Assembly: GCA_046539225.1 (NCBI GenBank)
Contig: JBKHHG010000017.1
Location: 1 to 16,699, forward strand
Direction: 5' to 3'
Source: Candidatus Nanohaloarchaea archaeon
GTDB lineage: Archaea; Nanohalarchaeota; Nanosalinia; Nanosalinales; Nanosalinaceae
DNA: 16,699 nucleotides
Shown: positions 3,356 to 4,439 of the stretch, piece after piece
Numbering within the stretch: the stretch's first letter is position 1
Layout of the letters: each line of letters opens with the position of its first letter
Program-made: the position numbers and the translations under genes
The notes under the pieces: generated by a model
The model's input: only the letters and a program-made list of their open reading frames with translations
What the model was told of the DNA's origin: nothing
Databases searched by the model: none

Positions 3356-3469
3356 TTAAAGAGCGGTCGCTATAACAACTTCTGTATCGGAGCCGACCTT
3401 CGGGGCTTCCCGAACCTCCAAGTCCTGAGCTTCAAGCTCTGCTTCAAAGTTCCGCGTGTTTGCATTCAT
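3356..3469 (-). CDS. Small acidic peptide, 37 aa (MNANTRNFEAELEAQDLEVREAPKVGSDTEVVIATAL)
   Basis: ATG at 3469 is preceded by SD-like GAGGTG with a 10-nt spacer, similar to the histone gene (GGAGGTG plus 11 nt). Acidic composition, unlike the upstream part of the 104-aa track ORF. Confidence 0.65.
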   Translation of the reverse strand: MNANTRNFEAELEAQDLEVREAPKVGSDTEVVIATAL

Positions 3470-3800
3470 TCTTTTCTGGCACCTCGTTGTTCGAATCCAT
3501 AGATTTGGAAAGATTGTCGTAAAGGAGGCCGGAGGACAGGCCTCACCTTGCAAGCAAGACCTGCCCTCAACTGCTCTCCACCAAGTAGTTCCACAGAGGT
3601 AGAAAGCAGTTACCCAGTTTTTGAGTGTTCGCGGTCGGTCATTGGCCACTTCAATCGGCCAAGACTTCATCCCGCTTTACTCTGCCAGAAAATTGATAAT
3701 GGATGTTGCCTTGGCCTTAGTATGGATATACATAGGTCTCCCCAGATCCACGGACACGTTTCCAGAGAGCCATTCAGTATTTGAAACCAAGGCCATTTTC
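3470..3800 (-). ncRNA. Unidentified structured RNA or long 5' leader
   Basis: Helices that pair better on the minus strand through G-U pairs: 3532-3568 (16 bp), 3569-3611 (14 bp), 3638-3665, 3712-3795 (10 bp enclosing 3738-3769). Long-range pairs 3671-3680/3519-3528 and 3683-3692/3472-3481. No convincing protein in any frame. Confidence 0.65.
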
Positions 3801-3825: not shown

Positions 3826-3842
3826 CCTTAAATATCTTTATA
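3826..3842 (-). promoter_or_regulatory. Putative BRE/TATA promoter for the structured RNA and small peptide
   Basis: Minus strand TATAAAGATATTTAAGG about 30 nt upstream of the first helix. Confidence 0.5.
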
Positions 3843-3986: not shown

Positions 3987-4439
3987 ATGGATCTTCCGGA
4001 AGGCCTTTCACGGGAGCAAGCTGAAGAACTTTTGAACGAAGCCGATGAAGTAAGAAAAAACACTTTCTCAACCTTCACTGGTAACTCTGTCGGAGCGACG
4101 ATTCTAACTGACTCCGGGAAGACTTACTCTGCGCCCTACTTTGAAAGCGTGATACAGGGTCTTGGGACTTGCGCCGAGAGAAATGCTGTGGGATCTGCGG
4201 TGGCGGACGGAGAATACAAGTTTACAGCGGTCGCAGTAGTCGGAGAGGCTGAAGAACCAATCACGCCCTGCGGAGCATGCAGACAGATACTCTCAGAGTT
4301 CGCGGAAGTCGCACAACACGACATCACTGTCATCATGAGAGGCCAAAATGGAGAAACGGAAGTTGAAAGCCTGGAGAATCTAATGCCGGATAGCTTCGGT
4401 GCCGCGGAAGCCGGGGCAGACCTTGAACAGTACAGATAA
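3987..4439 (+). CDS. cdd: Cytidine deaminase family protein (homotetrameric type)
   Basis: Zinc motifs CAERNA and PCGACRQ, plus VGA and C-terminal LMPDSF; 150 aa. Confidence 0.88.
   Translation: MDLPEGLSREQAEELLNEADEVRKNTFSTFTGNSVGATILTDSGKTYSAPYFESVIQGLGTCAERNAVGSAVADGEYKFTAVAVVGEAEEPITPCGACRQILSEFAEVAQHDITVIMRGQNGETEVESLENLMPDSFGAAEAGADLEQYR

Follow-up and report, generated by a model that had tools for sequence, protein, structure and literature searches.

Introduction

Ribosome-mediated attenuation is an established form of gene control in bacteria. The uORF of Mycobacterium smegmatis whiB7 holds every amino acid except Cys, and its composition determines sensing (PMC10274678, in part). 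The element described here resembles this mycobacterial attenuator in having a long, near-all-amino-acid uORF, stalling on which would alter folding, and one small stress protein as its proposed output. The whiB7 system is bacterial and works with an intrinsic terminator and a tested antiterminator (PMC10274678, in part), whereas our element is archaeal, lacks a canonical terminator, carries a k-turn within the switch and some 200 nt of additional structure, and leads to an ORF2 of no known family. Likenesses also exist to the Escherichia coli toiL-topAI uORF, where stalling on a short ORF shifts pairing round the downstream ribosome binding site and general translation stress is sensed (PMC12121999, in part), and to the mycobacterial polycysteine sORFs, which are leaderless and where stalling has the same effect on pairing (10.1101/834739, in part). 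In the accessible parts of these two reports the ORFs differ from ours in being much shorter or devoted to a single amino acid, in pairing directly on the ribosome binding site and in having no k-turn. Archaeal L7Ae autoregulatory leaders share with our element an mRNA GAU bulge, tandem G.A and A.G pairs and a predicted L7Ae-dependent fold (PMC6298567, in part); there the k-turn covers the Shine-Dalgarno (SD) of l7ae itself, whereas here it adjoins the leader stop, the SD being some 150 nt away, and an ORF1 strand is its competitor.

A homologous RNA has also been catalogued. SVXNc_nc0001 of Ca. Nanohalococcus occultus, present too in Ca. Nanohalovita, is an abundant unknown ncRNA of 322 nt (PMC10266531 Table S3, in part), the printed sequence of which contains, by eye, the motifs of our element in order as the reverse complement. 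The annotation, made on the opposite strand, calls it a 'rancRNA with H/ACA boxes', non-coding and specific to the organism, and the accessible part of that report describes neither the ORFs nor the switch, the k-turn or the family-wide range. The RNA was thus known before and misread as non-coding. In the same table the SRP RNA nc0002 seems to be reverse-complemented as well, and nc0003, so read, has an SD followed by an AUG (both by eye) and may be another small-ORF leader. Our literature search, which covered few subscription papers, returned no tested archaeal leader-peptide attenuator and no account of ORF1 or ORF2. Here we argue that the two-ORF unit is probably, though well short of certainly, a switch for general starvation or translation stress that is read by the ribosome and puts ORF2 on when translation slows.

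Results and discussion

A structured minus-strand element of two ORFs

The window analysed, 16 699 nt in its entirety, is contig 17 of a genome of 607 kb that is 82% complete. An earlier note on this DNA had proposed an unrecognised multi-helix RNA at positions 3470–3800, a novel ncRNA or a large cis-regulatory leader with its own promoter. All 14 helix strands that it quoted were located on the minus strand, from 3795 to 3519, and this strand folded to −125.7 kcal/mol (z −4.69, with none of 100 shuffles as low), against −97.1 kcal/mol for the plus strand over 3470–3800 (z −1.83, 3 of 100 shuffles as low). Since the plus strand folds less well relative to its shuffles, the minus-strand call is supported. 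The earlier note was right, too, in reading selection at the RNA level. Five helices (1:2, P2, a 4-bp post-stop helix, 3:4 and Pb; Table 1), comprising 40 pairs, were paired in 95% of cells across 36 homologues, and 26 of the 40 pairs had double changes. None of 500 shuffles came as high, and slid controls reached 31–48%.

The proposal of a leader came close, but 'non-coding' was wrong, as the 5′ 120 nt are a conserved ORF. Nor did the proposed limits hold, for the element continues through an SD and a 37-codon second ORF to 3356. The single fold that was drawn also hides what we regard as the key feature, two mutually exclusive pairings and a k-turn motif. The closing helix (3680–3671 with 3528–3519) proved not to be conserved, cognate strands pairing at −3.7 kcal/mol and shuffled partners at −4.3 kcal/mol in 40 homologues. 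The region of the 14-bp helix does fold in all 40, but with variable length and shape. The 5-bp helix ACTCA/TGGGT lies in a variable linker.

Table 1. Features of the two-ORF element and its convergent neighbour (positions in the window; P1 and P2 are helices within ORF1).
Feature	Position	Strand	Evidence
Archaeal TATA-like box, TTTAAG at 3832–3827, with purine-rich upstream flank	3826–3840	−	Sequence
ORF1, 39 codons, folded inside (P1, P2)	3677–3796	−	Frame open in homologues
Strand 1, spanning the start codon, partner of strand 2	3786–3795	−	Covariation
P2 helix within ORF1	3738–3769	−	7 pairs, 91.4% paired, 4 double-changed
Strand 2, encoding K-A-K-A, alternative partner of strands 1 and 3	3707–3721	−	Covariation
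k-turn hairpin, one base 3′ of the ORF1 stop	3631–3675	−	Consensus, covariation
Hairpin Pa, variable, holds conserved anti-SD-like motif (3601–3595)	3569–3611	−	SD covariation test
Hairpin Pb, stem of 15–16 bp with free covariation, top conserved as GCUU-GCAA-GGU	3532–3568	−	Covariation
CGG, short pyrimidine tract and A/C-rich, low-G linker; candidate 3′-end site	3486–3531	−	Base composition
SD of ORF2	3480–3485	−	Sequence, homologues
ORF2, 37-aa acidic protein, N-terminal helix and extended tail ending A-T-A-L	3356–3469	−	Homologues, AlphaFold
Convergent winged-helix gene, 158 aa	2843–3319	+	Constant neighbour, fold match

The absence of a recognisable RNA family was confirmed by a scan of the locus against 4227 Rfam families, which gave nothing at E < 5 (best, ar35, 19.7 bits against a gathering threshold of 45, E 5.2) and no match to group I or II introns or to known riboswitches or ribozymes; by eye, the alignment was without the conserved P7-type motif of a group I-like core. 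In line with the earlier note, neither the archaeal SRP RNA (RF01857) nor the RNase P RNA model (RF00373) matched at the locus, and the relatives have their normal SRP RNA elsewhere (51 of 70 above the cut-off). Two genomes had two SRP RNA matches each (G055:C7 and G061:C3), either a duplication or an assembly artefact, and a divergent RNase P RNA candidate was met at G000:C27:390-653 (E 4.9e-9; 35 bits, far under the Rfam cut-off of 84).

Could the 5′ 300 nt instead be a stable, abundant RNA acting in trans or on the ribosome, with ORF1 merely loading ribosomes and ORF2 a separate gene? The elaborate covarying structure would suit such a role, as would the conserved unpaired motifs at the top of Pb and in a GGAAC loop, which the switch does not explain, and the published homologue, which ends before the SD, is very abundant (RPKM about 40 000; PMC10266531, in part). 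This reading is nevertheless quite unlikely in our view, because it does not account for the coding constraint on ORF1 and its amino-acid coverage, or for an ORF2 that follows the stop by 187–325 nt in 40 of 40 homologues with no promoter-like box in between. There is also no fixed ACA or H box: 25 of 54 homologues had no ACA within 20 nt, and in the rest it was scattered, with no conserved lower stem, and an H/ACA guide RNA was accordingly rejected.

Distribution and neighbouring genes

BLAST over a class of 70 genomes detected the element, essentially in single copy, in 46 (the source genome, 44 of the 49 others of its family and 1 of the 20 outside it). Searches with ORF2 and with DNA added G061 and three of the eight genomes of a distant family (f5), the copies of which (L118, L119 and L129) keep the same design in other letters. 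A metagenome pattern scan gave 26 further loci, and viral contigs no exact pattern match. No element was found in G036, G041, G059 or G069 (72–85% complete), or in 16 of the 20 genomes outside the family. Parsing of 86 loci, before filtering, gave 54 distinct sequences. Three failed the anchor pattern, two of these being put in manually, and L049, truncated by a contig end, and L071, unparsed, were dropped; the outcome was the set of 54 used in later counts. ORF2 was parsed in 48, and the non-redundant homologues numbered 40. All of these sequences are kin rather than independent, so that counts of changes are inflated.

The winged-helix gene adjoins ORF2 in 34 of 34 loci and is always convergent within the family. 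Its 158-aa product, 65–90% identical among full-length relatives, finds its best fold match in TFE-alpha/TFIIE-alpha (Z 9.5, rmsd 5.5 over 101 residues) and has Atlas neighbours in several archaeal phyla (AF_0843 family at 0.91); it could be an undescribed general transcription factor. Homology between this protein and the convergent gene at L119 was unsupported (E 0.75). Upstream, an RNase H-like gene is the neighbour in 36 of 40 homologues. A cytidine-deaminase-like gene (3987–4439, plus strand) stands between it and the promoter of the element in the source genome, the only one of 34 loci to have this gene.

ORF1 is a conserved coding leader

The promoter claimed in the earlier note was borne out by the TATA-like box of the window and by such a box 30–40 nt 5′ of the ATG in 45 of 54 homologues (as counted by a pattern script, outside the pattern of which the window's own box falls). 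With the usual haloarchaeal TATA spacing, the position of the box makes the ORF1 RNA likely leaderless or nearly so, transcription probably starting near 3800. Leaderless transcripts are the common type in Haloferax (PMC7261190, in part). A small hairpin with a T run (3906–3889, minus strand) lies upstream of the promoter and possibly insulates it; such hairpins occur at a chance level of 0.8 per shuffle.

In 53 of the 54 distinct homologues, unfiltered, the frame of ORF1 is open from Met to the same stop (3679–3677 in the window), the remaining one being cut by a contig end, while just 2 and 1 of 54 are open in the other two sense frames. The stop site uses all three codons (TAA 44, TAG 6, TGA 4), indels come as whole codons, and the ATG has shifted upstream in frame in some lineages. 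By these comparative signs ORF1 is coding, and we infer that it is translated. The conservation of both products (mean column identity 52% for ORF1 and 62% for ORF2) would agree with an mRNA that is simply bicistronic and encodes two functional peptides, perhaps a signalling pair or one of toxin-antitoxin type, the structure then serving stability. We judge this reading very unlikely, since the ORF1 peptide has only two invariant columns, varies in length from 35 to 43 with indels throughout, and has its conserved codons where the pairing strands lie; two peptides would, moreover, have no need of competing helices.

The composition of ORF1 speaks for a sensor. The peptide encoded in the window contains 18 of the 20 amino acids, and ORF1 peptides contain on average 18.2 distinct residues, against 15.3 in equal proteome windows and 16.65 in base shuffles. 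When peptide blocks were shuffled among the 40 homologues, the observed 18.35 compared with 17.30 ± 0.11 (0 of 10 000 as high), the gain in 10 control windows of ORF2 and two neighbouring proteins being at most 0.09. His, Tyr and Arg were present in all 40 peptides (expected 32.0, 33.9 and 34.7 respectively), Trp in 36 (expected 28.5) and Pro in 35 (expected 27.2), the last two each in exactly one block per peptide. No loss of His, Tyr, Arg or Phe occurred on a 39-row tree of the neighbouring gene, against 16–23 moves between blocks, counts that are inflated by noise in a tree of one short gene and by block edges. Gln (21 of 40) and Cys (19 of 40) occur in only about half of the peptides, with no signal of compensation, and the divergent leaders hold only 15–17 residues in 26–35 codons. 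Codons ending in U are over-used in ORF1: ATT makes up 78% of Ile codons, compared with 19% genome-wide, and TAT reaches 75%, compared with 23%. This bias may also reflect RNA constraints. These nanohaloarchaea are unable to synthesise most amino acids (PMC10266531, in part), which makes a sensor of general shortage plausible.

Mutually exclusive helices and a k-turn

Within ORF1, helix 1:2 consists of 7 pairs that are 92.8% paired, two of them double-changed, and its cognate duplexes beat non-cognate ones (p < 0.0001). Strand 2 can pair instead with strand 3 beyond the stop (helix 2:3, 3716–3708 with 3665–3657; 9 pairs, 94.4% paired); here too cognate duplexes were stronger than non-cognate, double-change cells numbered 6 against 1.3 in shuffles (0 of 500), and L040 displays a three-way change across the strands. 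Helices 1:2 and 2:3 cannot coexist. Strand 3 also pairs with strand 4, and 3:4 (3665–3657 with 3647–3638) is the NC helix of a k-turn completed by a GAU bulge, G.A and A.G pairs and a C helix (3675–3672 with 3634–3631) that is 100% paired with two covarying pairs. Formation of 2:3 uses up the NC strand and so destroys the k-turn motif.

The k-turn consensus, as defined in PMC6298567 (in part), was found in 54 of 54 homologues, a set partly anchored on the motif itself, and also, on inspection by eye, at four divergent loci (L117, L118, L119 and L129), three of which had been found through ORF2. Its −1b:−1n pair is G:C in 36 of 36. Since k-turns with this pair do not fold in ions alone (PMC6298567, in part), L7Ae is the predicted partner; its gene is present in the source genome.

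A masked ribosome footprint model of 40 homologues links translation to the choice of helix. The mean probability of 2:3 was 0.31 in the free RNA, 0.52–0.61 with a ribosome on codons 1–8 and 0.36–0.46 on codons 12–20, falling to 0.11 or less on codons 24–32 and to 0.11 at the stop, so that at equilibrium the Lys, Ile, Phe and many Tyr codons of the last third would go unsensed through 2:3. The same footprint-dependent flip was obtained for L114, a member of another family, and three of the four divergent leaders had no clear 2:3 helix.

From the leader to ORF2

Hairpin Pb is 97.2% paired, with 11 of 15 pairs double-changed and a mean of −22.6 kcal/mol. The 16 nt on its 3′ side have a U content of 0.27, and the linker that follows is A 0.43, C 0.30, G 0.12 and U 0.14; there is thus a weak U tract only and no canonical bacterial-type terminator 3′ of Pb. 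Termination by aCPSF1/FttA at U tracts has reportedly been described. For the relative L027, RNA-library contigs (four runs of one study, unstranded) cover ORF1 and the spacer (1379–1671) at a depth of 265–1196 and, separately, ORF2 (1148–1386) at a depth of 3–6, with no contig bridging both. The pattern fits a 3′ end before the SD, but contigs cannot rank parts of a gene by expression, and we do not count it as evidence. The annotated end of the published 322-nt homologue before the SD fits termination by default.

The conserved motif in Pa, compared with the SD of ORF2, gave −7.4 kcal/mol in cognate and −6.7 kcal/mol in non-cognate combinations (p 0.001–0.002), the top of 45 windows compared and borderline after correction. 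The last 12 nt of ORF1, another of these 45, co-vary with the SD region too (p 0.002). In full-length nested folds the accessibility of the SD was nearly flat by ribosome position (0.26, 0.29, 0.31), with a probability of about 0 for pairing between the anti-SD motif and the SD. Pairing of the stop region with the Pa motif was rejected for want of covariation (p 0.63–0.73), as was pairing of the Pb top with post-stop bases, which is rare in the model (0.04–0.11; 40 rows, 7 of them mis-anchored there).

The SD core, GGTG or GGATG, stands 6–13 nt before the ORF2 start in all 48 parsed homologues. These starts are AUG in 34, AUC in 6, AUU in 6 and AUA in 2 (e.g. L008, L040, L030; L066 by eye), the non-AUG starts occurring only with an SD spacing of 6–8 nt; L040 and L042 must use AUU as their start, since the GUG within the SD lies out of frame in both. 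The 14 non-AUG starts with their tight spacing point to control of initiation. They favour, together with the covariation of the ORF1 end and an invariant k-turn of the protein-dependent class, a genuine switch that acts on translation only or reports free L7Ae, i.e. a surplus of ribosomal protein, possibly with reversed polarity, full translation of ORF1 turning ORF2 on. We think this unlikely; it leaves unexplained why ORF1 keeps a near-complete residue set whose places move.

The same starts, and a spacer that in the window is open in frame with ORF2, could be taken as signs of a tmRNA-like or recoding element joining ORF1 to ORF2, and ORF2, where A-N follows the start position and the terminal tail is hydrophobic, has what we take to be a tag-like appearance. 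We give this almost no credence: SmpB was found in none of the 70 genomes, no tmRNA model matched at the locus and ARAGORN returned nothing, the SD is ordinary, and spacer lengths fall in all three frames (18, 13 and 9 of 40), continuity of frame from ORF1 to ORF2 thus not being conserved.

The ORF2 protein

ORF2 had a match in 42 of 49 family genomes. AlphaFold predicts a helix over residues 3–18 (pLDDT 77). Among 1.84 billion representatives ORF2 matched 38 clusters, the matches reaching the C-terminus or ending at most four residues from it, and it belongs to no Pfam, PHROG or NCBIfam family; the best ESM Atlas neighbour, at 0.83, is a lead only. A strict ORF2 pattern, a single one that may pass over distant relatives, gave 47 matches in 185 579 species genomes, of which 22 were confirmed (18 nanohaloarchaea and 4 'uncultured archaeon'). 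In the distant copies L118, L119 and L129, with leaders of 26–32 codons and a k-turn of other helix letters, ORF2 starts M-C-x-D-C, a possible metal site. Judging by its modelled shape and its context, we guess that ORF2 most probably serves in stress or dormancy, as a peptide with helix and tail as its contacts to a partner.

Proposed mechanism

Three of the five defining features of leader-peptide attenuators were found in the element: a short conserved ORF with which the transcript opens, exclusive helices over that ORF biased by the ribosome (in the footprint model, for codons 1–20 only) and selection for sensor codons in the leader, in the form of a near-complete set with compensation. 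In the starvation switch that we favour, the ribosome would start at the 5′-terminal AUG of ORF1. With all tRNAs charged it would reach the stop, helix 1:2 would re-form behind it and 3:4 would fold with the k-turn, to be locked by L7Ae. RNA left untranslated would end after Pb and before the SD of ORF2, with aCPSF1/FttA as the likely factor, and the Pa motif would possibly mask the SD in read-through copies. Delay of a ribosome within the first half of ORF1 would free strand 2 to capture strand 3, blocking the k-turn and turning ORF2 on. The sensor half of this scheme is well supported by the sequence comparisons; the output half, polarity included, we infer.

More tentatively, and with clearly less confidence than in the switch as such, we suggest an archaeal pan-amino-acid sensor, in which a checklist of one codon of each kind would switch an L7Ae-bound k-turn, reading tRNA charging jointly with the supply of ribosomal proteins and releasing ORF2 as a dormancy or hibernation factor.

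Significance

The published annotation of this RNA as non-coding, and on the opposite strand, is corrected by these results. Reduced DPANN symbionts take up most of their amino acids from outside. For the sensing of a shortage in them, the locus offers a family-wide, highly expressed and testable candidate, with a k-turn that would work within a switch driven by the ribosome, and a new small protein that would likely stand atop a stress response. If the proposal is true, the sensor would fill in host-dependent nanohaloarchaea the role that ppGpp or GCN2/GCN4 fill elsewhere.
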